64,000 nt of DNA, taken from NCBI GenBank assembly GCA_026707445.1, contig JAPOWV010000011.1:19927-83926 (forward strand), read 5' to 3'. Of the stretch, positions 4,250 through 47,331 are shown in pieces; the first letter of the stretch is position 1, and every line of letters begins with the position of its first letter. This DNA comes from Gammaproteobacteria bacterium. Its GTDB lineage: Bacteria > Pseudomonadota > Gammaproteobacteria > Steroidobacterales > Foliamicaceae. The position numbers and the translations under genes were made by a program. The notes beneath the pieces were generated by a model. It was not told where the DNA came from and did not search any database. It saw only the letters and a program-made list of their open reading frames with translations.

Positions 4250-6315
4250 GTCGCGGGGGTCAGGCGGAGGTTCGAGAAGCGGTCCACTCGCGCCTGCCAA
4301 CCTGGCGGGATGGCGGTGGTGGTGTCGGGCTGCTCGACGATCGCGGGGCCTTCGATGCGGTGGCCCGGCTTGAGAGCGGAGCGCCGGTAAAACGACGTCG
4401 CCGGCGCTTCGGTCGCGCCGGGGAAGCGGCAGGGTGCGGTCAGCAGCGGCTCGGCGTCTTTCGAAGCCGCGTCCGCATCCTGCGCCGAAACGAGCGGCTT
4501 GCCGGGCACGTACGCGGACACGCCCAGGTTGATGACCCGCACGGGCATGTCCGGGTAGGCGCGCAGATAGGCGCGCTCGTGCTCCGTGTCGAAGCGCTCG
4601 CGCAGCGCCGCGGCCCACTCTGCATCGATGTTGCCGGGCGGCGCGTCCACCGCCAGTTCGTTGCCCTGGCCGGCATAGCGGCACTCGGCCCACAGTTTCA
4701 GGCGTACTTCGTCCGCGCCGAACCCGTCGCCGGCCAGCCGTCGGGTGGCTTCTTGCGTCATTTCATCGAAACGGCCGGACACGGCCGCGTAATCCAGGTC
4801 TTCCAGATCGCCCCAAAGCGTTGCCTTGAATTCATAGCGCACCTGCGCGCACAAGAGCCCGCCGGCCGCGCCCACGCCGGGGTGCGGCGGGATCAGCACT
4901 TCGCCGATGGCCAGCGCTGCGGCCACCGGCGCGGCGAAGGCCCCGCCCGCGCCGCCATAGGCTACCAGCGTGAATTCGCGCGGGTCAAAGCCCTTGGACA
5001 CGCTGGCCAGGCGCATCGCCTCGACCATGTTGTTGACCGCGATATCGAAGATGCCCCCGGCGGCGTCCTCCAGCGTCAGGCCCAGCGGCTTCGCGACGTG
5101 CCGGCGGATGGCGCCGCGGGCACGGTCGGGCGTCAGCGTGGAGACGGCGTCCGCCAGGTGATCGGCGCGGTACCAGCCGCTGACCAGAAGCGCGTCGGTA
5201 ACGGTCGGGTGTTCGCCGCCCTTGCCGTAGCAGGCCGGGCCGGGATCGGCGCCGGCGCTCTGCGGGCCCACGCGGAACATGCCCTCGGGGTCCAGCCAGG
5301 CGATCGAGCCGCCGCCGGCGCCCAGCGTGGCGATATCGACCATCGGCGTCATCACGTCGTAGTCGCCGACGCGGGTATCGAGCAGGCTGCGCATGCGCAT
5401 TTCGCCTTCCGGGGCCACGCCGATGTCCGCGGACGTGCCGCCCACGTCCAGCGTGATCACGTTCCCGCGGCCGATTTCGGCGCCGGCCTCGATGCCCGCG
5501 ATCAGCGCGCCGACCGGTCCGGAAAGCAGGAGATTGACCGGACGCCGCCAGGCTTCGGCCGGGGCGACCATGCCGCCGCTGGAAGTCATCAGGCGCAGTT
5601 GCGCCGGCACGCCCGCTTCCTCGAGCGCGGCGGCGAACCGGCGCACGTAGCGGCCGGTCACCGGGCCCACGTAGGCGTTCATCGCGGTGGTGGAGAAGCG
5701 CTCGTATTCGCGCACCAGCGGCGCGATCTCGTGGCTGGCGGTGACGTAGGCATCGGGGAACTCGCGCCGGGCGATTTCCGCGATGCGCCGCTCGTGTTCC
5801 GGGTTGAGGAAGGAGAACAGGCAGCAGACCGCGATGGATTCGACGCCCTGGTCCCTGAGAAGTGCAACGGCTTCGAGCACGTCGTCCTCGTTGAGCGGCA
5901 CTTCGACCTCGCCGTCGGGCGCACGGACCCGTTCGCGCACAGTCGTCCGCCAGCGGCGCGGCGCCAGGGGACGGCTCTGGCGGGCGATTTCCTGGTAGTG
6001 CGAGAAGTTGTACGGGCGGTCCTTGCGCCCGATGTGCAGGACGTCGCGGAAACCGCGGGTGGTGATCAGCCCGGTCCTGGCGCCCTTGCGTTCCAGCAGC
6101 GCATTGGTGGCCACGGTGGTGCCGTGACAGCAGAACTCGATGTCGGCGAAATCAAGTCCGGCCTTGCGCAGCAGTTCTTCTGCGCCCTGCATGGCCGCGC
6201 GGGCCGGGTCGTCGGGCGTGGAGGCGAGCTTGTGGGTGGCCAGGACCTGTCCGTCGCGGCCGGCGGCGATGAGGTCGGTGAAGGTTCCGCCGATGTCGAT
6301 GCCGATACGCGCCAA
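4246..6315 (-). CDS. Hydantoinase A / oxoprolinase family protein
   Basis: ORF 4246..6363. The TTG at 6315 gives the family-typical N-terminus (M)ARIGIDIGGTFTD. A second ATPase motif, LDVGGTSADI, is present. A start at 6363 (GTG) is also possible. Confidence 0.85.
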   Translation of the reverse strand: MARIGIDIGGTFTDLIAAGRDGQVLATHKLASTPDDPARAAMQGAEELLRKAGLDFADIEFCCHGTTVATNALLERKGARTGLITTRGFRDVLHIGRKDRPYNFSHYQEIARQSRPLAPRRWRTTVRERVRAPDGEVEVPLNEDDVLEAVALLRDQGVESIAVCCLFSFLNPEHERRIAEIARREFPDAYVTASHEIAPLVREYERFSTTAMNAYVGPVTGRYVRRFAAALEEAGVPAQLRLMTSSGGMVAPAEAWRRPVNLLLSGPVGALIAGIEAGAEIGRGNVITLDVGGTSADIGVAPEGEMRMRSLLDTRVGDYDVMTPMVDIATLGAGGGSIAWLDPEGMFRVGPQSAGADPGPACYGKGGEHPTVTDALLVSGWYRADHLADAVSTLTPDRARGAIRRHVAKPLGLTLEDAAGGIFDIAVNNMVEAMRLASVSKGFDPREFTLVAYGGAGGAFAAPVAAALAIGEVLIPPHPGVGAAGGLLCAQVRYEFKATLWGDLEDLDYAAVSGRFDEMTQEATRRLAGDGFGADEVRLKLWAECRYAGQGNELAVDAPPGNIDAEWAAALRERFDTEHERAYLRAYPDMPVRVINLGVSAYVPGKPLVSAQDADAASKDAEPLLTAPCRFPGATEAPATSFYRRSALKPGHRIEGPAIVEQPDTTTAIPPGWQARVDRFSNLRLTPAT

Positions 6316-6377
6316 GATGCCCGCGCCCCTTCGCGCGCCGAGAAAGACGGCGAATTTTCGCACACCGCGGGTCGTGT

Positions 6378-7763
6378 ATGGTTCGTGCGGCCATGGGTGC
6401 GCTGACCGAATCCGTTCTTGATTTCCTCTGCGGCGACGCTCCGGTGCGCGCGCCGGATAAAGCCCGGCGTATCGCCGTGACCGGGTTCATCGACTGTATC
6501 GGCGTGGCCCTGGCGGGAGCGGACCAGCCGGTGGTGCGCAACCTGCTGAAGTCCGACGGCGGGGGCGAGCCGGAGTCGCGGTTGCTGCTGAGCGGCGAAC
6601 GCCTGCCGGCCTCCGCCGCTGCGCTGATCGGATCCGCCGCCGCCCACGCTCTCGATCTCGACGACTACGCGTTCGCCAACCACACCAGCGCGGTGCTGGT
6701 GCCGCCGATCCTTGCGGAAGCCGAGGTGGTGCGGGCTTCCGGCGCCCGCATGATTGAAGCCTATCTGGCGGGTTACGAAGTCTGGAGCGTCCTTGCGCGG
6801 CGGGAGCAGACCTACATGCAGGGGGCAGGGTGGCACCCGACGGGCGTTTACGGCCCGGTGGGAGCGGCGGCCGCGCTCAGCCGCTTGCGCGGCATGCCCC
6901 GGCGCGAGACAGGCAACGCGCTGGGCCTCGCCGCAGCCGCGGGGGGCGGCGTGATGGACAACTTCGGGACGCAGGCCAAGCCCTACCAGGCCGCGCGCGC
7001 AGCGGAAGCCGGCGTGGCGGCGGTGCGCCGCGCGTTGGCGGGCCTGGACGCGGGGCCGCACGCACTGGACGGTCCGGGCGGCTTCCTGCAGACGATTTCT
7101 CCCAACGGCCACGTGGACCGCGCCTCGGCCGCCACGGAACTCGGCAAGGATTGGTACATGGCCGAACACGGGCTGAACATCAAGCGCTACCCGGTCGTGG
7201 GCGCGGCCCAGCGCTGCGTCGATGCGGCCCTGCAACTGCACGCCGACCACGGCCCGGAAGCCGCGGCGATCGAGCGTGTGACCGCGCGCGTCAGCGAGGC
7301 GCACTCGTCGGTCATGCAGTTCCGCCTGCCGGCCGATGCCATGCAGGCCAAGTTCAGCCTCGAGTTCGCGGTGGTCGCGCCGCTGATCTTCGGGCGCCTG
7401 GGTTTCGCGGAAATGCGCGACGAGTGCGTGCGCCGCGACGACGTGCAGTCGCTGATGCGGAAGGTGGAGCGGGAAGAAGGCGCGGACGACGATCCTGTAT
7501 ACCCGGTGGGGGCGCGCCATGACTCGGTGCGTGTCGCGCTAGCCGGCGGAACCGCGCTGGAGAGCGAGCCGGTCCATCGCTACCGTGGGCATGGGCAGAA
7601 CCCGCTTTCCCATGACGAGCTGCGCGCCAAGTTCATGGATTGCGCGACGGTTACCGGCGCAGTGCCCGAGGATGTGGCTGCCGATCTGTTCGAGCGTCTG
7701 TCGCGCCTGGAGGAACTGGACGGCGTCGGTGAACTTACTGAATTACTAAATATATCAGTATGA
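6378..7763 (+). CDS. MmgE/PrpD family protein, paralog 2
   Basis: 461-aa ORF with a PrpD-like layout (AAHALDLDDY, WHPTG, KRYPVVGAAQ). Divergent from hyuA across about 60 bp. The last about 10 codons are unusually AT-rich. Confidence 0.8.
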   Translation: MVRAAMGALTESVLDFLCGDAPVRAPDKARRIAVTGFIDCIGVALAGADQPVVRNLLKSDGGGEPESRLLLSGERLPASAAALIGSAAAHALDLDDYAFANHTSAVLVPPILAEAEVVRASGARMIEAYLAGYEVWSVLARREQTYMQGAGWHPTGVYGPVGAAAALSRLRGMPRRETGNALGLAAAAGGGVMDNFGTQAKPYQAARAAEAGVAAVRRALAGLDAGPHALDGPGGFLQTISPNGHVDRASAATELGKDWYMAEHGLNIKRYPVVGAAQRCVDAALQLHADHGPEAAAIERVTARVSEAHSSVMQFRLPADAMQAKFSLEFAVVAPLIFGRLGFAEMRDECVRRDDVQSLMRKVEREEGADDDPVYPVGARHDSVRVALAGGTALESEPVHRYRGHGQNPLSHDELRAKFMDCATVTGAVPEDVAADLFERLSRLEELDGVGELTELLNISV

Positions 7764-7799
7764 TATTAATTATATCTCACTTATATTATAGATTTTAGT

Positions 7800-9101
7800 T
7801 CAAACGCCAACCAGTAATTTTTCCAGCATGGCGCCGGCGGCCAGCACCCTCATGTCGGCGAACCGCGCGCCCACGAACTGCACGCCCACCGGTAGTCCCG
7901 CCGGACCCGTAAGGCCCGGGACCGTCACGCAGGGCAGCTGCAGCGCCGTGAACAGCCGGTTGAACGTGGCCTCGCCGTTTCCGTCCCGGCGCGGGATGGC
8001 TTCACCCGGCACCGAAGCCGTCAGCCAGGCGTCGTAATCGGCAAGGCGCCGGTCGAACACCGGGCGAAGGCCGCCGATCCCGTCGTAGGCCTCGGCCATC
8101 GCCCGCGGCGTGATCCCGCGGTTGACCTCGACCTCCTCGATGATGTCCTCGTGCAGGCCCTGCTTGCCGGCGCCGTGCTCGGCCAGCAGCGAGATCCGCG
8201 CCTCGCCGTGCATGATCACGTCCTGCCATTCATTGAGGTTCTCCGCTCCCGGAATTTCCTCCAGGCCCTCGACGCTGTGGCCGGCGGCCGCAAGCCTGTC
8301 GGCCGCGGTCTCCACGGCCGAGCGGCTGGCGGGCTCAGCGTCGGGCCAGTAGGGCGTGCGGTAAAGCCCGATCCGCAGGCTCCGGCCTGCTTCGGGCGCC
8401 TGCCATTCGCCCAGGTTCAGGACCTCCCCGGTCCGCGCCAGCAGTTCCACGTCCTCGGCCATCCAGCCGACGGTGTCGAGGCTGGGCGCATGCAGCCACA
8501 GTCCCTGCACCGGCACCCGCCCGTAAGTGGGCTTGAAGCCCGCCACGCCGCAGAACGAGGACGGCCGGATCACCGAACCGCCGGTCTGCGTGCCCAGCGC
8601 CATGGGCGCCATGCCGGTGGCCACGGCGGCGCCGGAACCCGCCGACGAGCCGCCCGGGGTGCGCTTGGGGTCGTGCGGGTTGGCGGTGGGAGGGTCGCGG
8701 CCGATGCCGGCGAATTCGACCGTGTCCGCCTTGCCCAGCAGCACGCAACCGGCCTGGCGCAGCAGACGCACGCAGGCGGCGTCCTGCCCGGCGCGCCGTC
8801 CCTCGTAGCGGGGCGAACCGCGCTGCGTGGGCAGGTCCACCGTATCGATCACGTCCTTGACCGCGAACGGCAAGCCGTGCAGCGAACTGCGCGGCCCGCG
8901 CAGTTCGCGTTCGCGGTCCCGCGCGCGCGCCTCGCCCAGCGCCCGCTCCGCGTCGAAGGCCGCGAACGCCTGCACGTCCTTTTCGCGGGCCTCGTAGCGC
9001 GCAATGCAACGCTCGACCGCCTGCTCGCTGGAGATCTCCCCGCGCGCCAGCCTCGCCCACAGACCCTGCGAGGGGAAGCCGGAGTCCGGATTGCGTTTCA
9101 T
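7800..9101 (-). CDS. Amidase (amidase-signature family)
   Basis: ORF 7800..9626 from the ATG at 9101 (MKRNPDSG...). Amidase signature GGSSAGSGAAVA plus LGTQTGGSVIRPSSFCGV. Confidence 0.85.
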   Translation of the reverse strand: MKRNPDSGFPSQGLWARLARGEISSEQAVERCIARYEAREKDVQAFAAFDAERALGEARARDRERELRGPRSSLHGLPFAVKDVIDTVDLPTQRGSPRYEGRRAGQDAACVRLLRQAGCVLLGKADTVEFAGIGRDPPTANPHDPKRTPGGSSAGSGAAVATGMAPMALGTQTGGSVIRPSSFCGVAGFKPTYGRVPVQGLWLHAPSLDTVGWMAEDVELLARTGEVLNLGEWQAPEAGRSLRIGLYRTPYWPDAEPASRSAVETAADRLAAAGHSVEGLEEIPGAENLNEWQDVIMHGEARISLLAEHGAGKQGLHEDIIEEVEVNRGITPRAMAEAYDGIGGLRPVFDRRLADYDAWLTASVPGEAIPRRDGNGEATFNRLFTALQLPCVTVPGLTGPAGLPVGVQFVGARFADMRVLAAGAMLEKLLVGV

Positions 9102-24852: not shown

Positions 24853-24857
24853 TCCCG

Positions 24858-24963
24858 CCTGTTGTCCTGCCCCGCTCTCGCGGGAGACGCATGAACCCGT
24901 CCATGGGGCTCGGCGGCGACTCCTGTCGCCGACGCTCCCTCGAGAGCGGGGCAGGACAACAGG
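24858..24963. repeat. Long inverted repeat (23-bp perfect arms) between the oxygenase alpha and beta genes
   Basis: cctgttgtcctgccccgctctcg (24858-24880) is the exact reverse complement of cgagagcggggcaggacaacagg (24941-24963). The 60-nt loop holds a smaller hairpin (ggcgac tcct gtcgcc, 24915-24930). Confidence 0.85.
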
Positions 24964-24982
24964 CTCCCGTTCGCGCGGTCCC

Positions 24983-31038: not shown

Positions 31039-31064
31039 AAGCCCGCCCGCGACGGGACGCGGCA

Positions 31065-31292
31065 TTAGCCGCCCTGCATAACCCTTGGGGCCGGACCGCT
31101 CCCGGTCTGAGGCGTCGAGGCCATCATGATCCCTTTCAGTTCCCCGATCGCGAGCGCGTTCGCGTGTCCCTGCTTCTCCAGCCGCTCAAGAATATCGCGG
31201 TTGGCGCGCACCTCGGCGATCACTTCGTCCAACCGTTCTTCCGAGAGCGTATGAAGATTGTCAATGGCGGTGGCAATCCGTTTGATGTCCAT
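31065..31292 (-). CDS. Small hypothetical protein (75 aa, helical/coiled-coil-like)
   Basis: Internal ATG at 31292 of ORF 31065..31370, preceded by AGGAGG 5 nt upstream. MDIKRIATAIDNLHTLSEERLDEVIAEVRANRDILERLEKQGH... No motif recognised. Confidence 0.45.
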   Translation of the reverse strand: MDIKRIATAIDNLHTLSEERLDEVIAEVRANRDILERLEKQGHANALAIGELKGIMMASTPQTGSGPAPRVMQGG

Positions 31293-31473
31293 ATATTCCT
31301 CCTGTTCACGCCCGCCACTCAGACATAACGCCCACCCTTCAGGCTCATGTCCGTATTGGATTACGCTCACGGAAGGTAGCAGTGCCAGCGCTCATGTAGA
31401 CTCGCCGTTGACCGGTTCTATGCCGTCGCCGTCTCTTGGGCATTCATTCACTATAATTTGGGAAAGAAACGCA

Positions 31474-32670
31474 ATGAACTTCAAAGTCTACGGTCCATTC
31501 AAGCTCAATACAGAGTCTGATACCAGATGGATTGATCAAGCAGAGATCAAAAAATTCTGGGTCGAGGTGGCGAAGCATGAAAACCTGGGAAAAGCCTGCG
31601 GCGTGTATTTGTTTTGTGTTGAAGGCAAGCAGAAGGGGGTGAGTAAGACTACAAACCTGCCGTGGTATGTGGGTAAAGCAGAGAGACTGACTTTCAAGCA
31701 AGAGTGCTTTAACCACCGAAATCAGCTTTCATACAACAAGGTCATTTCGCAACTGTATAGAGAAGTTACCGCAATCCACTTCTATTTCGTTGCTCGCCAT
31801 GATGAGGACGGAAAGTTCTCCGCTCCCGCCAAGAAAGATGAAAAAACACCATATGAAGGAGTGCGCTTAGTTGAACGATTATTTATGCGAAAGTCACTGG
31901 CGGCGAATAATGACTTATTGAATATGAGGGACTTGACGAACGCAAGACGAACACGCATAAGGAACATATTGAACTGGTCGGTTCCAGGGAGAGACGATAG
32001 CAGCGTAAGGGCGCTCAAGGACAGCCTGGGCATCAATGATCATGTATCGCTTTTAGAGGACGAGTCTGATGCGAAGAATTTGTATCAGGTGTATGGTCCG
32101 TACCACTTCCCCACTTATAAGACTACTACTAAAGCAGTAGGCAAGGAGTTTATTTCAGCGTTCTGGGATCAATTTGCCAGTAAGCCCAAAAGCATACCCG
32201 ATTTCCCTAAAGCGACTGGTGTGTATGTGATCGGAGTTCGTTGGAAAGATAGCATCACTCCGCACCACATTGGAACAAGTAAAAGAACCTCGTATCAAGA
32301 TGCCTGGAAGGGGGAGAGAGGTCGGATTGCCGGCATCGTCCGACAACGAGGCGCGCCAGTTGTTTTCTTTTTGCCAAGAGTTTCCCCTAAGTCACATCAC
32401 AAAGTCGAGAAAATCAAGAAAACTTCCTCGATATCGAAGAATATGGAATTTGTCGAAAAATGGCTCCTTAGATACGGCATCGCAAAGAACCGAGAGATCA
32501 CTACTGGTGAGGGCGAAACTGCCAACATAATGAGAAAATTGCATGTTGAAGGATTTATCAAGCCCCAACGCGGAAAGCGGAGCAAGTCAGTCAGTCAGTT
32601 AAGGGAATTGTTCGAGAAGAAGAATAAACAGGAGGGTGAACGGCGAACTGCGGATTCTGCCAAGCAGTGA
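31474..32670 (+). CDS. Hypothetical protein with an internal duplication, two GIY-YIG-like modules (398 aa)
   Basis: ATG at 31474 within ORF 31258..32670. aa 5-190 and aa 206-398 align: VYGPF/VYGPY, FW/FW, GVYLF...YVGKAER / GVYVI...HIGTSKR, FYF/VFF, VERLF...N / VEKWL...N. Basic C-terminal tail. The CDS call is fairly secure. The nuclease-fold assignment is inference. Confidence 0.6.
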   Translation: MNFKVYGPFKLNTESDTRWIDQAEIKKFWVEVAKHENLGKACGVYLFCVEGKQKGVSKTTNLPWYVGKAERLTFKQECFNHRNQLSYNKVISQLYREVTAIHFYFVARHDEDGKFSAPAKKDEKTPYEGVRLVERLFMRKSLAANNDLLNMRDLTNARRTRIRNILNWSVPGRDDSSVRALKDSLGINDHVSLLEDESDAKNLYQVYGPYHFPTYKTTTKAVGKEFISAFWDQFASKPKSIPDFPKATGVYVIGVRWKDSITPHHIGTSKRTSYQDAWKGERGRIAGIVRQRGAPVVFFLPRVSPKSHHKVEKIKKTSSISKNMEFVEKWLLRYGIAKNREITTGEGETANIMRKLHVEGFIKPQRGKRSKSVSQLRELFEKKNKQEGERRTADSAKQ

Positions 32671-32695
32671 AGTTGAAAACGGAGCTATCGGTGAT

Positions 32696-33499
32696 TTAGC
32701 CTGAATCGTCTTGTTCGGAGCGCCTTGAACATTTCGAGGCAGGGCTTTGCATCTTGCGGGCACGAAGGACGACGGGTGTCGGTTGATCTTCCACAACGCG
32801 GTAGGCTACGAATACGTGCTCGCGGCCGGCGTTTGGGTTGGGAACTTCTGTAGTCGTCATTTCGTTCGTGCGCAGATCGAAGCTGTAAACCACGACAATC
32901 TGATCTACTTCTCGCCGAGTCAACCTGCCAACTTCAACCAGGTCGTCATCGACTGCGTGCTCTTCGGGAAGAAGCAGGGTTCGGTTATGTGCCGTGCCTT
33001 TTGCAAGCGCATACGGGGTTGGCGCCACGTACATCTTGCGGTCTCGGACCAGGATGTCGCCGTAGCTGCCGAAACCGCGAAAGCTCTTGTTCTCATGGAC
33101 ATACGTGTTGTCGGCGTTGAGAAAGCTGCCGTGGCAAATTACAAGATCAAGCACGGGATATTGATCACCGTCAGGCTTCCTGGGATAGCGTCCGAATACG
33201 TAGTAAACCTGCCGGCCGTTATGTTCGCCGCACGGTGGCTGACTGTTGCAGTCATAGTTGGCCTTGCGGCCCGGATAGGCGAGCCCCTTGAGTTCGAAGC
33301 CTTCCGTAAACTTGACAAGCCGGAAATCGGGGTAGGAATTGCGGCCGGGCGAGTCAAAGTTGAGGCCCACGCCTTCGAGTCTTGCCTTGAACCAATTCTG
33401 GAAATGGAACTCCTTGTCTCTCCGGCCTTCACGCTTTATGAGGTCTCCGCGATCCATCGCCTGAACGCAGGCCTTGAATAGAGTCGAGGCGTTGGACAT
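32696..33499 (-). CDS. PD-(D/E)xK nuclease-fold protein (candidate restriction endonuclease)
   Basis: 267 aa. E30 (KEFHFQNWF), P57-D58 (SYPDFRLV) and E69-L-K71 (GFELKG) give a canonical E...PD...ExK arrangement. Starts 3 nt after the methyltransferase stop. Confidence 0.55.
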   Translation of the reverse strand: MSNASTLFKACVQAMDRGDLIKREGRRDKEFHFQNWFKARLEGVGLNFDSPGRNSYPDFRLVKFTEGFELKGLAYPGRKANYDCNSQPPCGEHNGRQVYYVFGRYPRKPDGDQYPVLDLVICHGSFLNADNTYVHENKSFRGFGSYGDILVRDRKMYVAPTPYALAKGTAHNRTLLLPEEHAVDDDLVEVGRLTRREVDQIVVVYSFDLRTNEMTTTEVPNPNAGREHVFVAYRVVEDQPTPVVLRARKMQSPASKCSRRSEQDDSG

Positions 33500-33502
33500 G
33501 CC

Positions 33503-35758
33503 TTAACCCGCTTCAACGCACATGCGTGGTTCCTGCTGGAGCGAATGTGCTTGATCGATCATCGCATTCGCCTTGGGCAGTGATTCGTCCAGCAGGCGCA
33601 GGGCCAGTTCGGTCGATGGCAGGTGCGAGAGTTCACGCAAAAGTTGGGCCATTACGATAATGCGCGCATCATTGCGGCTAAGGCTGCGTCCAGCTTCAAT
33701 CAGCCGAATGACCTGCTTCGTTACCCGAGTTTCAATCGGCCGGCAAATATCTCCATTCACCGAAATCGCTTTTAGCTGCGACCGTTTGCGGCACACTACA
33801 ATGATATCGAGATCAATAGGCTCCTTGGCTTGATGCTTGGGCATCGCAACCGACATTTCAGCCTTGATCGGGTGGGTTGCGGTGACTCCGAACCCTGAGT
33901 CCATGAGAGCACGCAGGACACAACGCCAGCCTTCGGGCCGGGAATGGTGATAAGTAAAAGCGAGCACCCCGTCATCCTTCAGAACACGGCAAGCTTCTTG
34001 CAATACGCTGCACAGGCGATCGGCGAAGTCGTCCGCTTCCGCGGTCTGCACTTCACGAGCCGAGCGCGTTGTATCCTTCAGCCGGGATCCGTCCGGGTCG
34101 AGAATGTGACGCTGCCAAACATGGAAGAAATCGGCAAGCTGCGAGTAATGGACATTGTCGAAAAAAGGTGGGTCAGTCAGGACGGCATCTACGGAAGAAT
34201 CCGGTAAGTCAGTCGCGCTGGAATCCCCGCAGGATAGATAAACGTGCCGGCCCTCAGAGAATTCGGTGTAGCTGGTTGCCGTATCGAACCCTATGTTTTC
34301 GGACAAGCCATATACCTTGTTTGTGGTCCGCTTCTTTGCCCTCGTGACAAGCTGGAGTTCGAAAGGGTTGTCTGCATAGTCGAGCGCACGCCGTATGCGG
34401 CCCTCGAACATCGTAGTGAATGATCCTGAACTCTTTGGCGTGCCCCAAAGGTTGGCTTCCAGCGGCGTCCGTTCGGGCTTGAGAATGTGGTGAGCGAACA
34501 TGTGCCGGACAGCCCCGGTGCCTTCGCCCTTATAGGAGGCAAACATATTGTTGAACTCCAGTGCGCCGGAAAAAAGGCAGGTAAAGAGCTCGCGAATGAC
34601 AGGGTCGCCGATTAACCTGATCCGATCAGCCAGAATTGATAGACATAGCAATTGGCGAGCGTTGAACATCTCGTGCCAATATCGGTAGTTGTACCCCAAG
34701 ACCTGATTCGTGTTATAGCCGGGGCAAATCTTCACAACCGGAAACGGGTCATTCCTGGTAGCAAGCAGACGCTTTGCCTCGTCATAGAGTTCGCGGTCTT
34801 CGTCTGAAGCGGGAAGATAGGCTTTTGTCCCGTCAGGCATGAGAACGAGCTTGGCATACAGACGGTGATCCGGCGGGATGTCTTCCGCCCGAATCGACTT
34901 GACTATTCGGAAGCTGTCGGCGCAGTGGGGACATGTCGCTATCTGTCCATTTGCCGGGCCACGGTTTGGGTCGAAGGACTCCCCACATGAACAACAGCGC
35001 TTCTCAGTGTCCTGTATGTGGACTTCATTGATCGCATCGCAAGACGGACAAACAGCCTGTGCTCTCGGGAATTTTTTCGGGTATGCGTGCTGCGCGAAAA
35101 TCATCGAAGAAAAGAGGTCAACGGATTCTTCGCAAGATGGGCACTCGACCACCTTTACCCAAAAAAAGTAAAGCACGTCCGCGAATTTGCCGTCGGGAAG
35201 CTGAGTACTGTAGAAGTTTCTTATTCTGTCGGCGACATCATTTTCAATTGCACGAAACGTACTGAGGATGGCCTTGCGGTCATGGACGGAGAGCGCGCAC
35301 TTCACCAGGAAATGGGCAACCGGGTTGATATCGCGGCCCACTGCCCGCGCACCCAATTTGGCCGCCTCCAACAGCGTTGTGCCGCTGCCCATGAACGGAT
35401 CGAAAACAACCCGATCCCGAATGCGCACCGGTTTGTGGAAGAGTTCCAGTTGGTTAATTCCGCTCGGCGCAAACGTACCGATTACCATTGCGCGGAATAC
35501 GGTCCCAAGTCTCTGTGCCCACCATTTGTGAATATGGGTTGTAGGCCGGTTGATTTCCTTTCTCCAACTTTCCTTCTCGGCAATTTCGCTTAGCGCTTCA
35601 AAAGGAAAACTCTCGTCCTCGATCGCACGCGGACCGGAAGTCGGTGTCAGATGGATGACTGCTTCCGAGGCATCTTCGAAAGGAAGCTGGAGAGTGCTGT
35701 CCGCATCCGCAAAGGTCTGCCAGCGAGATAGGGAACTCGATGTACTCATGGGAGGCAT
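33503..35758 (-). CDS. DNA methyltransferase with Zn ribbons (DUF1156/COG1743-like, probably N6-adenine)
   Basis: 751 aa. DUF1156-like N-terminus (FPFEALSEIAEKESWRKE...HIHKWWAQR...RA). SAM motif I VFDPFMGSGTT (aa 118-128). CxxC pairs at aa 206/209, 237/240, 255-258 and 276/279. FNARQLL. Motif IV TDPPFF (aa 528-533). Confidence 0.85.
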   Translation of the reverse strand: MPPMSTSSSLSRWQTFADADSTLQLPFEDASEAVIHLTPTSGPRAIEDESFPFEALSEIAEKESWRKEINRPTTHIHKWWAQRLGTVFRAMVIGTFAPSGINQLELFHKPVRIRDRVVFDPFMGSGTTLLEAAKLGARAVGRDINPVAHFLVKCALSVHDRKAILSTFRAIENDVADRIRNFYSTQLPDGKFADVLYFFWVKVVECPSCEESVDLFSSMIFAQHAYPKKFPRAQAVCPSCDAINEVHIQDTEKRCCSCGESFDPNRGPANGQIATCPHCADSFRIVKSIRAEDIPPDHRLYAKLVLMPDGTKAYLPASDEDRELYDEAKRLLATRNDPFPVVKICPGYNTNQVLGYNYRYWHEMFNARQLLCLSILADRIRLIGDPVIRELFTCLFSGALEFNNMFASYKGEGTGAVRHMFAHHILKPERTPLEANLWGTPKSSGSFTTMFEGRIRRALDYADNPFELQLVTRAKKRTTNKVYGLSENIGFDTATSYTEFSEGRHVYLSCGDSSATDLPDSSVDAVLTDPPFFDNVHYSQLADFFHVWQRHILDPDGSRLKDTTRSAREVQTAEADDFADRLCSVLQEACRVLKDDGVLAFTYHHSRPEGWRCVLRALMDSGFGVTATHPIKAEMSVAMPKHQAKEPIDLDIIVVCRKRSQLKAISVNGDICRPIETRVTKQVIRLIEAGRSLSRNDARIIVMAQLLRELSHLPSTELALRLLDESLPKANAMIDQAHSLQQEPRMCVEAG

Positions 35759-35964
35759 CCGGGAAACCCATTGAGCCAGAGAGGCATAGATGAGCGCTAA
35801 TTTACACGATATGGAAGGAGCGCGCGCAATTATCTACTAACGCTAATCTCACGACTGCCTGAGCGATGTCCTGATGGATGGAAGCTTGCATAATATTTAC
35901 AAGTGCTTGCATTGTCCTGCTGCGCGCATTACCTATCATCAGACTTCAGGAGGAAACCCTGTCC

Positions 35965-36768
35965 ATGCGCATTCAATTCTCAAGCGGACTCGTTTTCATT
36001 GCACTTCTTGCGGCGCCCGTTTACGCAACGGCCCAGGTGGAAATCATCGAGCCCCAAGACCGCTCGCCGGGTATCGTCAAGATCGCCCGGGGCACCACCG
36101 AATGCCGGGAGCCGTCCAGGGACAACGCCCGCTGCGCCACCGAATACTGGACCCTGTATTTCCATGCGGACGGCAGCCGCTATATGCACGTGGTCTCCGA
36201 CAACATGCGCTTCGGCCAGGCGCGCCACGCCATGGTCTGGATCGATCCGAAGGGCGACACGCGGGAGGCTTATCTCAACACCTGGACCCAGGACGGCGTG
36301 ATCGGTTCGGCCTATGTGGTGAAGCGGGAAGACAGCGTGGACGTGGCGGCCTCAGACCTCCAGTTCGAGCGGGCCGGCGAAGGCATGATCCGCGAAGAAG
36401 TGAATGCGCTCGCCCGGCTGGACTCCATCGGCGTCGGGCCGGCCTCGGCCGACGGGCTTCATTTCCTCCACTACGACTTCGACGCGCCCGGCAAGCAGCC
36501 TCACGGCATCTACTGGATGGGCGGCACTCTGCACGGGACGATGGTCGGCGTGATCGCCCTGTCCCAATACACATATCTCGGCGAAGAGGAGATCACGATC
36601 GCCGACGGCAAGACCTTTCCGGCCGACAAGTTCGAGATGGTCAGCGGCACGAAGGTGTGGCTGACCAAAGAGGACCGAATCCTGCTGCGCATGGATCTCG
36701 TTTTCGGCGCGGCCTACGGCTCGATTTTCGAAACGGTCAGCCTGGACATCACCGAGGTGGGGTCCTGA
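35965..36768 (+). CDS. Exported hypothetical protein
   Basis: ATG at 35965 (AGGAGG upstream) gives the signal peptide MRIQFSSGLVFIALLAAPVYATAQ. GC returns to the host level. No motif recognised. Confidence 0.6.
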   Translation: MRIQFSSGLVFIALLAAPVYATAQVEIIEPQDRSPGIVKIARGTTECREPSRDNARCATEYWTLYFHADGSRYMHVVSDNMRFGQARHAMVWIDPKGDTREAYLNTWTQDGVIGSAYVVKREDSVDVAASDLQFERAGEGMIREEVNALARLDSIGVGPASADGLHFLHYDFDAPGKQPHGIYWMGGTLHGTMVGVIALSQYTYLGEEEITIADGKTFPADKFEMVSGTKVWLTKEDRILLRMDLVFGAAYGSIFETVSLDITEVGS

Positions 36769-36771
36769 ACC

Positions 36772-37650
36772 ATGGTTTCACGACGGGATGCGACGGCGTT
36801 GATCGCCACCATGGGGTTGGCGCCCGCGGCTCTGCACTGGAGGGAGGCCAGTGCCGGCGAACATGCGCCGGAGTTACCGACGGACCCGGTCGAACAGAAC
36901 GCCGCCAGGGTGCGCATCGTGGGACGCCTCGATGAAGGGGAGAGTTTCTGGCAGGGGGCCAGCCGTATATTCGCCCTGACCGCGGACGGCGTGACGCCGC
37001 TGCTCGAAAACCGCGGCGGCGAGAGGTCCTGGTGGCGGCCCGACGGGCAGGGGACCTGGCGGCGCTACCCGTCGTCGATCAATTTCTTCATCGACCCGGA
37101 CACCGGCGCATTCATCGACTCGTTCGAAAATCCGCTCACAGGCCGGACGGTCCGCCTTGAGCCGGCCCTGCAGCGGCGCCAGGACGGCGAGGTGTTTACC
37201 CCCAGGGGCAGCTACTTTCAGAACAGCAGGGCGCGATTTCCCGAAATGTACGACGACAAGCCGCTGGACCTGGACTGGCGGGTGGACAACGGTTCGATCC
37301 GTCTGTTCGAAATCGAGAAGTTCGCGCCGGTTGCGCCACAGCCCATTTACGAAACCCACACCTACTTCGCTCCGGCCGAGGTGGCGCTGGACGACGGCGC
37401 CGTCCAGTCCCCGGCCGTGCGCGCCGGCTGGTTCGTCGGCAGCTTCAGCCACTGGCTCGACATGGCCGACGTGGAGGGCTACATGGTCTGGCACTTCGAG
37501 AGCACCAAGGTGTTCTCACTGGAAGAACTGGGCGAGGATTACATCGCCCATGCCCGGGCAAGAAACGCCCTTTTCGACGTCTCGCCCGAGTTCGACGAAG
37601 GGCCGGACTATCTCGAAACGGTGGAAAGGCGCCGCAGAACGGAAGACTGA
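36772..37650 (+). CDS. Hypothetical protein with Tat-like signal
   Basis: MVSRRDATALIATMGLAPAAL resembles a twin-arginine signal. Starts 3 nt after the preceding stop. Function unknown. Confidence 0.6.
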   Translation: MVSRRDATALIATMGLAPAALHWREASAGEHAPELPTDPVEQNAARVRIVGRLDEGESFWQGASRIFALTADGVTPLLENRGGERSWWRPDGQGTWRRYPSSINFFIDPDTGAFIDSFENPLTGRTVRLEPALQRRQDGEVFTPRGSYFQNSRARFPEMYDDKPLDLDWRVDNGSIRLFEIEKFAPVAPQPIYETHTYFAPAEVALDDGAVQSPAVRAGWFVGSFSHWLDMADVEGYMVWHFESTKVFSLEELGEDYIAHARARNALFDVSPEFDEGPDYLETVERRRRTED

Positions 37651-37753
37651 CCCGGGCCTGTTTCAACGTGATCGCAACCGTCTTGCGGTTTGCGGCATCC
37701 ATAAGAGCGAAAGAGGCCGTTACGGCCATGACCTGAAGAAGGGAGACCGACCG

Positions 37754-47327: not shown

Positions 47328-47331
<4 letters not shown>
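47298..47331. repeat. 34-bp direct repeat, copy 2 (tRNA-Pro promoter/leader, includes TAGAAT at 47310-47315)
   Basis: See copy 1. The last 4 nt are the first 4 nt of the tRNA. Confidence 0.8.

Follow-up and report, generated by a model that had tools for sequence, protein, structure and literature searches.

The genes treated here have their closest described relatives among orthodox Type II restriction-modification (R-M) systems with a PD-(D/E)xK endonuclease, among the DUF1156/COG1743 DNA methyltransferases (MTases), in the GIY-YIG nuclease superfamily and among the free-standing homing endonucleases. GIY-YIG is a classic homing-endonuclease fold, and its active site is laid out as a hairpin carrying the GxY and YxG motifs plus a glutamate on a later helix. 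RAMA and HARE-HTH domains are DNA-reader modules that occur on restriction enzymes. To our knowledge no described GIY-YIG enzyme is built as a single-chain tandem, and none was turned up by a literature search for tandem or pseudodimeric forms. The locus described in this work lies in a stretch of 64,000 nucleotides (below called the window) from a Gammaproteobacteria bacterium (assembly GCA_026707445.1, contig JAPOWV010000011.1, positions 19,927 to 83,926 of the forward strand). It is an island poor in guanine plus cytosine (GC) with genes for a 751-amino-acid (aa) DNA MTase, a 267-aa candidate restriction endonuclease (REase) and a 398-aa protein that consists of two related, GIY-YIG-like halves.

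A first reading of the window, made from its letters alone (the original prediction), had taken these genes, together with a 75-aa open reading frame (ORF), as a possible composite restriction or defence module in which one methylase is combined with two unrelated nucleases. We consider it likely that the island is instead a mosaic, located in a hypervariable spot between the 75-aa and cyclase genes on one side and the DUF4890 and thrS genes on the other, and made up of an R-M pair and an independent 398-aa gene.

Results

Composition of the island

Measured in 400-bp windows, the island has a mean GC content of 0.522 with a minimum of 0.45 (31200-36000), compared to 0.672 ± 0.035 outside it, and no comparable dip occurs anywhere else in the 64 kb. 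The sharp GC drop of the original prediction is thus real, and the four ORFs that it listed are all intact and positioned as it had them. Its limits for the island, 31040-35964, need correction at both ends: the left edge lies at about 31314-31317, which leaves the 75-aa gene outside, and the variable region extends on the right to 37672. The parts of the island differ in composition, with GC values of 0.46 for the 398-aa gene, 0.556 for the REase gene, 0.543 for the MTase gene and 0.60 for the 75-aa ORF. The four proteins were searched against Pfam, PADLOC, NCBIfam and PHROGs, and matches were obtained for the MTase alone.

A predicted two-gene restriction-modification module

The MTase gene (33503-35758, minus strand) is followed after a gap of 3 nt by the REase gene (32696-33499, minus strand), so that the two form an M-then-R operon. 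The MTase matched Pfam N6_N4_Mtase above the cut-off (2.8e-13), PADLOC MTase_II (4.5e-29) and phrog_10183 (1e-113). On inspection of the translation motif I, FMGSGTT, was located at residues 122-128 and motif IV, DPPF, at residues 529-532, and between the two there are four CxxC motifs (residues 206-279) that are predicted to make two Zn ribbons. The DPPF motif suggests methylation of adenine at N6. The score with Pfam DUF1156 (PF06634) was 22.3 bits, under the cut-off of 24, and the score with NCBIfam DUF1156_antiphage (NF042963) was 113.6 bits against a cut-off of 1000; partial PADLOC matches were to HmaB (residues 298-563) and PglXI (residues 479-656). Since the DUF1156 profiles are matched only in part and below their cut-offs, the MTase is not a member of the DUF1156 anti-phage family. 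It is best described as a predicted Zn-ribbon N6/N4 methyltransferase with a DUF1156-like N-terminus, as had been proposed. No match to the partners of DUF1156 systems (a large ATPase and others) was found among the neighbours in the window, and the conserved partner in 17 loci is the 267-aa nuclease; BREX and Hma partners (PglZ/BrxC, helicase/ATPase) are likewise missing from the window region. By its predicted gene content the R-M pair belongs to none of the DUF1156 anti-phage, BREX and Hma systems.

In the 267-aa protein E30, P57-D58 and E69-L-K71 are invariant across 37 aligned homologues, which is the PD...ExK arrangement, and the best PDB neighbours that Foldseek returned for its AlphaFold model are almost all PD-(D/E)xK proteins (HincII, MvaI, SfiI, Sau3AI, Hjc and MutH). 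The model has a predicted local distance difference test (pLDDT) score of 66 and a predicted template modelling (pTM) score of 0.72, and the neighbours scored E values of 0.07-0.5 with probabilities up to 0.72, i.e. weak matches of a low-confidence model. The best PDB sequence match was the VRR-NUC entry 4qbo (E = 0.13), and no Pfam, PADLOC, NCBIfam or PHROG family was matched. The PD-(D/E)xK assignment of the original prediction is supported by the invariant residues and, weakly, by these folds. The family is large, comprising more than 4177 clusters, and its members are annotated as 'hypothetical' and once as 'DUF956 family protein'. Homologues 70-93% identical were observed in Gammaproteobacteria, Acidobacteria, Tectomicrobia, Magnetococcales and Paraburkholderia, a conservation and spread that are unusual for a restriction enzyme.

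Of the 19 loci with the nuclease, 17 have the REase and MTase genes side by side (loci are numbered L001 onwards; here L007-L017, L059-L064 and L067), and the two exceptions are a decayed remnant (L018) and a divergent viral contig (L065). The pair occurs in sister genomes of the window (L007-L010, L016, L067), in Paraburkholderia humisilvae (L011, L012), in a metagenome-assembled genome of Tectomicrobia (L013-L015), on four plasmids (from Tabrizicola, Tomitella, Rhodococcus and Acidiphilium) and in three of four viral contigs. The gene order is either M-then-R, as in the window, or R-then-M, as in the plasmid and viral branch. Across the loci examined no third gene is conserved alongside the pair, and its GC content was under that of its flanks in all five hosts checked. 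Because the two-gene adjacency is retained across phyla, plasmids and viral contigs with no third gene, it carries the signature of a Type II-like R-M system, and we take the MTase and the 267-aa protein for a predicted Type II-like module that travels as a unit. In line with this, MTase and endonuclease are encoded by separate, adjacent genes with no S, Res or helicase subunit, and the MTase has the S-adenosylmethionine-binding motif I and a (D/S)PP(Y/F) motif IV; on the features that can be read from sequence, the pair qualifies as Type II.

On the 8.2-kb MOBQ plasmid of Tabrizicola (NZ_CP034332, L017, positions 4592-6936) the R-M pair is followed by genes for a DUF262 protein and a HEPN-like nuclease. 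These two genes suggest that a second defence module has been stacked beside the same R-M family.

Independence of the 398-aa gene

The 398-aa gene (31474-32670, plus strand) is convergent with the REase gene and ends 25 bp from its stop codon. This closeness speaks for a reading in which the MTase and both nuclease-like proteins, the PD-ExK one and the tandem GIY-YIG-like one, possibly joined by the 75-aa protein, constitute one composite system whose single methylase guards against two nucleases. The genes are moreover contiguous and all GC-poor, their adjacency is old enough to have left remnants in L016 and L018, and in L002 a 398-aa homologue is likewise found beside a DNA MTase, in that case an MTase-HNH fusion. 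The wider distribution of the genes argues strongly against it. When the REase and MTase of the window were compared by tblastn with 48 loci containing a 398-family gene, they were found in L016 and L018 alone, both of the window's own lineage. In none of the 46 loci outside that lineage (L001-L006, L019-L058) does this R-M family occur within 6-8 kb of the 398-family gene, and no R-M locus outside the lineage carries a 398-family gene. Furthermore, L007-L010 and L067 have lost the 398-aa gene completely and yet kept the M+R pair intact, the GC contents of the parts differ (0.46 vs 0.55), and the 75-aa gene outlives the R-M pair in one relative and is missing from another, L016, that bears the pair. 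Co-occurrence of the four genes had been named beforehand as the test of the composite module, and only the MTase-nuclease pair turned out to be conserved. The composite reading is thereby largely refuted, and we consider it very improbable. The 398-aa gene is independent of the R-M pair, and the distributions of the two are unrelated.

Homologues of the 398-aa protein occur in a variety of surroundings. In L001, L006 and four further syntenic loci the gene stands alone between metabolic genes, and in L003-L005 it stands alone beside a gene for a thioredoxin-domain protein near sdh, lepB, rnc, era, recO and mutL. In L002 it adjoins the MTase-HNH fusion, a 451-aa N6_N4 MTase with a C-terminal HNH domain (6532-7887) directly upstream of the homologue, which is 73% identical to the window protein. 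In L020 (3575-7163) a 56%-identical homologue, apparently split in two ORFs, adjoins SLOG-cluster2, ThiF and multi-ubiquitin genes, a neighbourhood of the ubiquitin-like conflict-system type. No DNA methylase is among the 25 commonest Pfam families beside nine two-domain loci. The neighbours of shorter, single-domain relatives include AAA_21 (3), SMC_N (3), AAA_15 (2), UvrD (2) and phage integrases (2), as well as four DNA methylase families (1 each), a type IV secretion system coupling protein and a transposase, and one single-domain relative resides on a plasmid where all its neighbours are annotated 'hypothetical protein'. These annotations suggest that the single-domain relatives sit in mobile or defence-island surroundings with no obligate partner.

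Sister haplotypes and the history of the locus

Five sister haplotypes, with roughly 80-93% nucleotide identity to the window, share its synteny around the variable spot (Rieske...ChsH2-SDR-cyclase, the variable spot, then DUF4890-thrS-infC-rpmI-rplT-pheST). To judge by sample names, this lineage probably lives in association with sponges. In L007-L010 (about 90% nucleotide identity) the 75-aa gene, the REase gene and the MTase gene are present (the MTase gene being cut at the contig end in L010), and the segment corresponding to window positions 31314-32758, which includes the last codons of the REase tail and the whole 398-aa gene, is missing. In L016 the 75-aa gene is absent and the R-M pair stands beside a 398-aa gene from which the middle (31666-32503) has been deleted. 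In L018 the 75-aa gene is kept, the 398-aa gene is reduced to its last 125 bp and the REase gene to its 3' third, and the MTase gene is gone. In L067 the 75-aa gene and the R-M pair are present, the tail of the REase is interrupted by a transposase-like ORF and no trace of the 398-aa gene could be detected. The relatives had been proposed for comparison to see whether the 4.9 kb comes and goes as a unit; as these haplotypes show, its parts are gained and lost separately. Only in the window are both modules fully intact among the haplotypes compared.

A long REase tail (…RKMQSPASKCSRRSEQDDSG) is common to the window, L016, L018 and, in part, L067, and the short tail of L007 is therefore attributed to a deletion. 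The L007 type is, on this comparison, more likely a deletion than an ancestral empty site. We considered whether in the window the 398-aa cassette had recently been inserted into an allele like that of L007, and rejected this because L016, L018 and L067 showed gene remnants and the long REase tail. L018 was also considered as an empty site and was rejected as such, being a decayed site with remnants. No true pre-insertion allele was found among the haplotypes compared.

The left breakpoint, 31313-31316, is identical in the comparisons with L007, L018 and L067, whereas the right breakpoints all differ. The 75-aa gene has its start codon about 20 bp downstream of this point and its ribosome-binding site just downstream of it, and the common position is probably explained by selection that keeps the 75-aa gene; a recombination hotspot may also lie behind it. 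In all, the locus is a hypervariable hotspot for accessory genes, whose contents are gained and lost piecemeal.

Could the 398-aa gene be a selfish, free-standing cassette of the homing-endonuclease kind, one that would spread by cleaving alleles without it and being copied into them, and that by chance ended up just downstream of the REase gene? The cassette as such (31441-32700, plus strand) is 78-82% identical at the DNA level to copies in unrelated contexts: in blastn, window positions 31472-32700 matched L002 7999-9243 with 82% identity, and positions 31441-32673 matched L003 7969-9225 with 78% identity, the neighbours in L003 being different from those in L002. The similarity is confined to the ORF and about 30 bp on either side, the flanks are unrelated, and neither terminal repeats nor a target duplication were found, all of which would suit a homing cassette, as would the presence, absence or degradation of the gene at the same locus in close relatives. 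In addition, the two-domain genes (GC 0.39-0.51; L001-L006, L020-L028) are 6-19 GC points below their host flanks in 12 of 12 loci; this low GC is seen even in the six syntenic loci, where the gene is apparently inherited vertically. On the other hand, the polymorphism in the window's lineage resembles decay by different deletions, with remnants in L016 and L018 and a deletion in L007 that exceeds the cassette. In six loci the gene has been kept at one syntenic position although the proteins share only about 36% identity with that of the window, which suggests that it has been retained vertically for a long time. Moreover, a tblastn search with the 398-aa protein gave nothing in 50,697 phage and 72,556 plasmid records, a pattern scan of 2.9 million viral contigs gave one single-domain match, and no intron or intein context was seen. 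The homing-type selfish gene is the main alternative for the 398-aa gene, and we consider it improbable. The reading that we favour is that of a chromosomal, methylase-independent gene of the defence-island type, with a predicted nuclease activity.

Architecture and relatives of the 398-aa protein

The halves of the 398-aa protein are homologous to one another (BLASTP E = 2e-8, 21% identity over 151 aa) and the AlphaFold2 model is confident (pLDDT 86.6, pTM 0.81), which makes its description as a single-chain pseudo-dimer reasonable. The tandem build that had been proposed is thus confirmed as a duplication, and the GIY-YIG part of that proposal has support that is weak but convergent. The N-terminal, GIY-YIG-like domain (31474-32043, plus strand; residues 1-190) contains the candidate catalytic residues G43-V-Y45, W64-Y65-V-G67-K-A, E134 and N145/N150. 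The C-terminal paralogous domain (32080-32628, plus strand; residues 203-385) has kept G249-V-Y251 and an xIG/YVG hairpin. As the position equivalent to E134 is not conserved in the C-terminal half in the alignment of the two-domain family, this half is probably catalytically degenerate, and the chain would probably have one active site and one degenerate half with an architectural or DNA-binding role.

A profile search of 1.84 billion representative proteins retrieved 1333 clusters of relatives (clustered at 50% identity) with E <= 1e-3, and 736 with E <= 1e-10. Of the best-scoring 150 among these 1333, only about a dozen are not single-domain proteins of about 175 aa aligned with the N-terminal half, and the clusters of the small two-domain family number 61. 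As a whole this family of ~175-aa and 398-aa proteins (>1,300 clusters) is covered by no model in Pfam, NCBIfam or PADLOC. When the N-terminal domain was aligned in 87 sequences, G43, Y65, G67, E134, N145 and N150 proved invariant and Y45, F47, P63, V66, F74 and E77 nearly so. In the model the GxY and YxG motifs (G43-V-Y45 and Y65-V-G67) are located on the strands of a beta-hairpin, 43-53 and 59-69, and E134 is located on a later helix, 128-144, which is followed by N145 and N150.

Several weak signals point to GIY-YIG domains of the UvrC/Cho type. In a PDB profile search the third of three matches was the UvrC GIY-YIG domain 1yd3 (E = 0.81), aligned exactly on GVY...YIGKA, and among the 87 members the weak NCBIfam matches went most often to PRK07883 (3), which we take to be a DEDD exonuclease fused to a GIY-YIG domain, and to excinuclease Cho (2; E = 0.007), with one more to UvrC. 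With hhalign, a small UvrC/I-TevI alignment gave a probability of 57% (E = 1e-4) over 30 hairpin columns, compared to 0.2-0.4% for two unrelated negative controls. Two relatives carry a C-terminal RAMA or HARE-HTH domain, and ten other longer relatives have no such domain. Candidate type IV enzymes with a GIY-YIG-RAMA architecture have been noted before (PMC11037411). Pfam detected no modified-DNA reader domain, which a type IV assignment would call for, in the 398-aa protein itself.

These signals have to be weighed against the view that the 398-aa protein is not a nuclease at all, and that its GxY...YxG resemblance is superficial; the protein could then have, for instance, a structural role or that of a regulator which binds DNA or nucleotides. 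That view draws on the same observations that count against our assignment. There is no invariant Arg after YIG in the 87-sequence alignment, where the canonical enzymes have one, and only a majority Lys/Arg at position 71. Pfam GIY-YIG matched none of 49 two-domain members and 20 single-domain or longer relatives (two sets of 10), and no member matched any nuclease family in Pfam, PADLOC or PHROG. Despite the confident model, Foldseek returned no GIY-YIG structure from PDB or BFVD for the full-length protein and no PDB neighbour at E <= 0.001, the best hits being USP28 in the PDB (E 0.058) and one unnamed viral protein (template modelling score 0.18); a PDB sequence search gave nothing. The hhalign match, too, spans only 30 columns and depends on a hand-made reference alignment. 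Against a superficial resemblance, however, stand the convergence of the weak signals on UvrC/Cho-type domains with clean negative controls, the invariant Tyr, Tyr, Glu and Asn on the secondary-structure elements where they are expected, and the fusion of relatives to the DNA-reader domains RAMA and HARE-HTH. A role other than that of a nuclease is possible, in our judgement with a fairly low probability. The assignment of the N-terminal domain to the GIY-YIG-like nucleases, on the other hand, appears likely.

Flanks of the island

The 75-aa ORF (31065-31292, minus strand) starts with ATG (MDIKR), and the mechanically delimited GTG ORF extends to 31370. It is predicted to be helical and has an AGGAGG ribosome-binding site upstream. 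Its family consists of 16 clusters only, all from close relatives and 61-96% identical. The gene is found beside the cyclase gene in L007-L010, L018 and L067, including L018 with its decayed R-M pair, it is absent from L016, which keeps the pair, and its GC content of 0.60 is near the host value. Because the foreign or variable DNA begins at about 31314-31317 the gene lies outside it, and we regard it as a native, lineage-specific gene, as far as can be judged from its composition and distribution, that merely borders the hotspot. Between this edge and the cassette about 127 bp (31314-31440, no strand) are assigned to no gene and are unlike the cassette flanks of L002 and L003.

To the right of the MTase gene the same hotspot continues, outside the R-M pair, with a variable segment of 1.85 kb (35828-37672, plus strand) that contains two ORFs. 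The first (35878-36768, plus strand; 296 aa) has a hydrophobic N-terminus and no family match, and the second (36772-37650, plus strand; 292 aa) is a DUF1838 protein (Pfam 1.8e-10). The segment has a GC content of 0.61-0.65; it is unmatched in L007 and L018 and essentially unmatched in L016 and L067.

As the original prediction had noted, mobility genes are missing: no integrase or transposase family was matched by the island proteins in the Pfam, PADLOC and NCBIfam searches. Direct and inverted repeats around the island were limited to short, chance-level matches, none of them convincing, and the sole tRNA gene of the window is tRNA-Pro at 47328. Promoter and terminator scans gave no signals above shuffled expectation.

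Two further features of the region were recorded. At 24857-24964 there is a near-perfect palindrome of 108 nt that would fold into one long hairpin (-85.9 kcal/mol); related copies are present at three sites in L018, and it resembles a dispersed repeat of the lineage, similar to repetitive extragenic palindromes or miniature inverted-repeat transposable elements. In L067 (6680-8772 and 9339-18223) there are a GC-rich transposase-like ORF and a second DUF4890-like copy, and the cyclase/SDR/ChsH2 cluster is duplicated, with a DDE transposase/DruA-like ORF between the copies.

Discussion

In the mosaic that we propose, the MTase would methylate the host copies of the recognition sequence of the R-M pair, and incoming DNA that lacks the methylation would be cleaved at these sites by the co-transcribed 267-aa endonuclease. 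The 398-aa protein would act on DNA as a methylase-independent nuclease, whether as an effector of the defence-island type or as a selfish gene, and would have no need of the R-M genes. Its N-terminal half, which keeps the GIY-YIG-like set (Tyr45, Tyr65, Glu134, Asn145), would be catalytic, and the C-terminal half would probably serve DNA binding or architecture only. The data show how the genes are arranged, how often MTase and REase are paired, that the modules are independent, that the 398-aa protein is a tandem duplication and which motifs are conserved; the enzymatic activities, the base that is methylated and any part in defence are inferred.

Apart from the objections to the nuclease assignment given above, some observations are less easily reconciled with this picture. 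The structural model of the REase is poor (pLDDT 66) and its fold matches are weak (E >= 0.07). The position of the 398-aa gene beside the R-M pair goes back to an ancestor shared by at least three lineages (window, L016 and L018), and the position of the L002 homologue beside an MTase-HNH fusion may reflect a loose functional or selective link to methylases.

A more far-reaching suggestion is that the ~175-aa family and the 398-aa protein represent an undescribed, methylase-independent branch of GIY-YIG-like nucleases with a stand-alone function as anti-phage effectors. In this case the tandem form would be a single-chain heterodimer, with one catalytic and one recognition half, and in this island it would complement the R-M pair, for instance through attack on modified DNA that gets past the pair. 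We regard this as doubtful.

With respect to annotation, the locus should be read as a conventional two-gene R-M module with an unrelated neighbour, and not be counted as a composite defence system, since the 398-aa family is near the pair in none of 46 loci outside the lineage and the 75-aa gene appears to be native. The REase family is widespread (>4,000 clusters) and has no profile model, so that these R-M systems go unrecognised by annotation pipelines. The 398-aa gene, in turn, leads to a large, unannotated family that resembles a divergent GIY-YIG nuclease, is consistently GC-poor relative to its hosts and is partly found in defence-island surroundings, and it is therefore a candidate stand-alone nuclease or defence gene.

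Comparison with known systems

The R-M pair resembles an orthodox Type II system with a PD-(D/E)xK enzyme in that adjacent genes for an MTase and a small endonuclease form one operon that lacks specificity, helicase and translocase subunits, in the PD...ExK residues of the endonuclease and in that both genes move together among phyla, plasmids and viral contigs. It differs in that no Pfam or NCBIfam model covers the endonuclease family, whose members are annotated as 'hypothetical', and in the unusual size of the MTase (~750 aa), in which a double Zn ribbon is inserted between motifs I and IV. With the DUF1156/COG1743 MTases (DUF1156_antiphage, PADLOC DUF1156_MTase, HmaB and PglXI) the window MTase has in common a DUF1156-like segment at the N-terminus, motif I, the Zn-ribbon insert and a C-terminal DPPx motif, but it scores far under their thresholds, with partial coverage, and is accompanied by none of their partner genes.

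The 398-aa protein is comparable to free-standing homing endonucleases (T4 seg/mob, I-TevI relatives) in being encoded by a solitary, ORF-sized cassette with differing flanks, no terminal repeats and a presence/absence polymorphism. Unlike them, its family is essentially absent from phage and plasmid collections and syntenic in some lineages, and the polymorphism in the window's lineage is explained by deletions. Compared to the GIY-YIG superfamily (UvrC/Cho, Eco29kI, Hpy188I and GIY-YIG-RAMA) it has a hairpin extended by about 10 residues beyond the usual length and lacks the canonical Arg, no Pfam or Foldseek match connects the two, and in the window protein a conserved and a degenerate copy are joined in tandem in one chain. 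On the other hand, the protein shares with that superfamily the hairpin with GxY and YxGKA, followed by a helix, a strand and a helix with the invariant Glu, and an Asn 11-16 residues further on, and its family is connected to UvrC and Cho by weak profile links.

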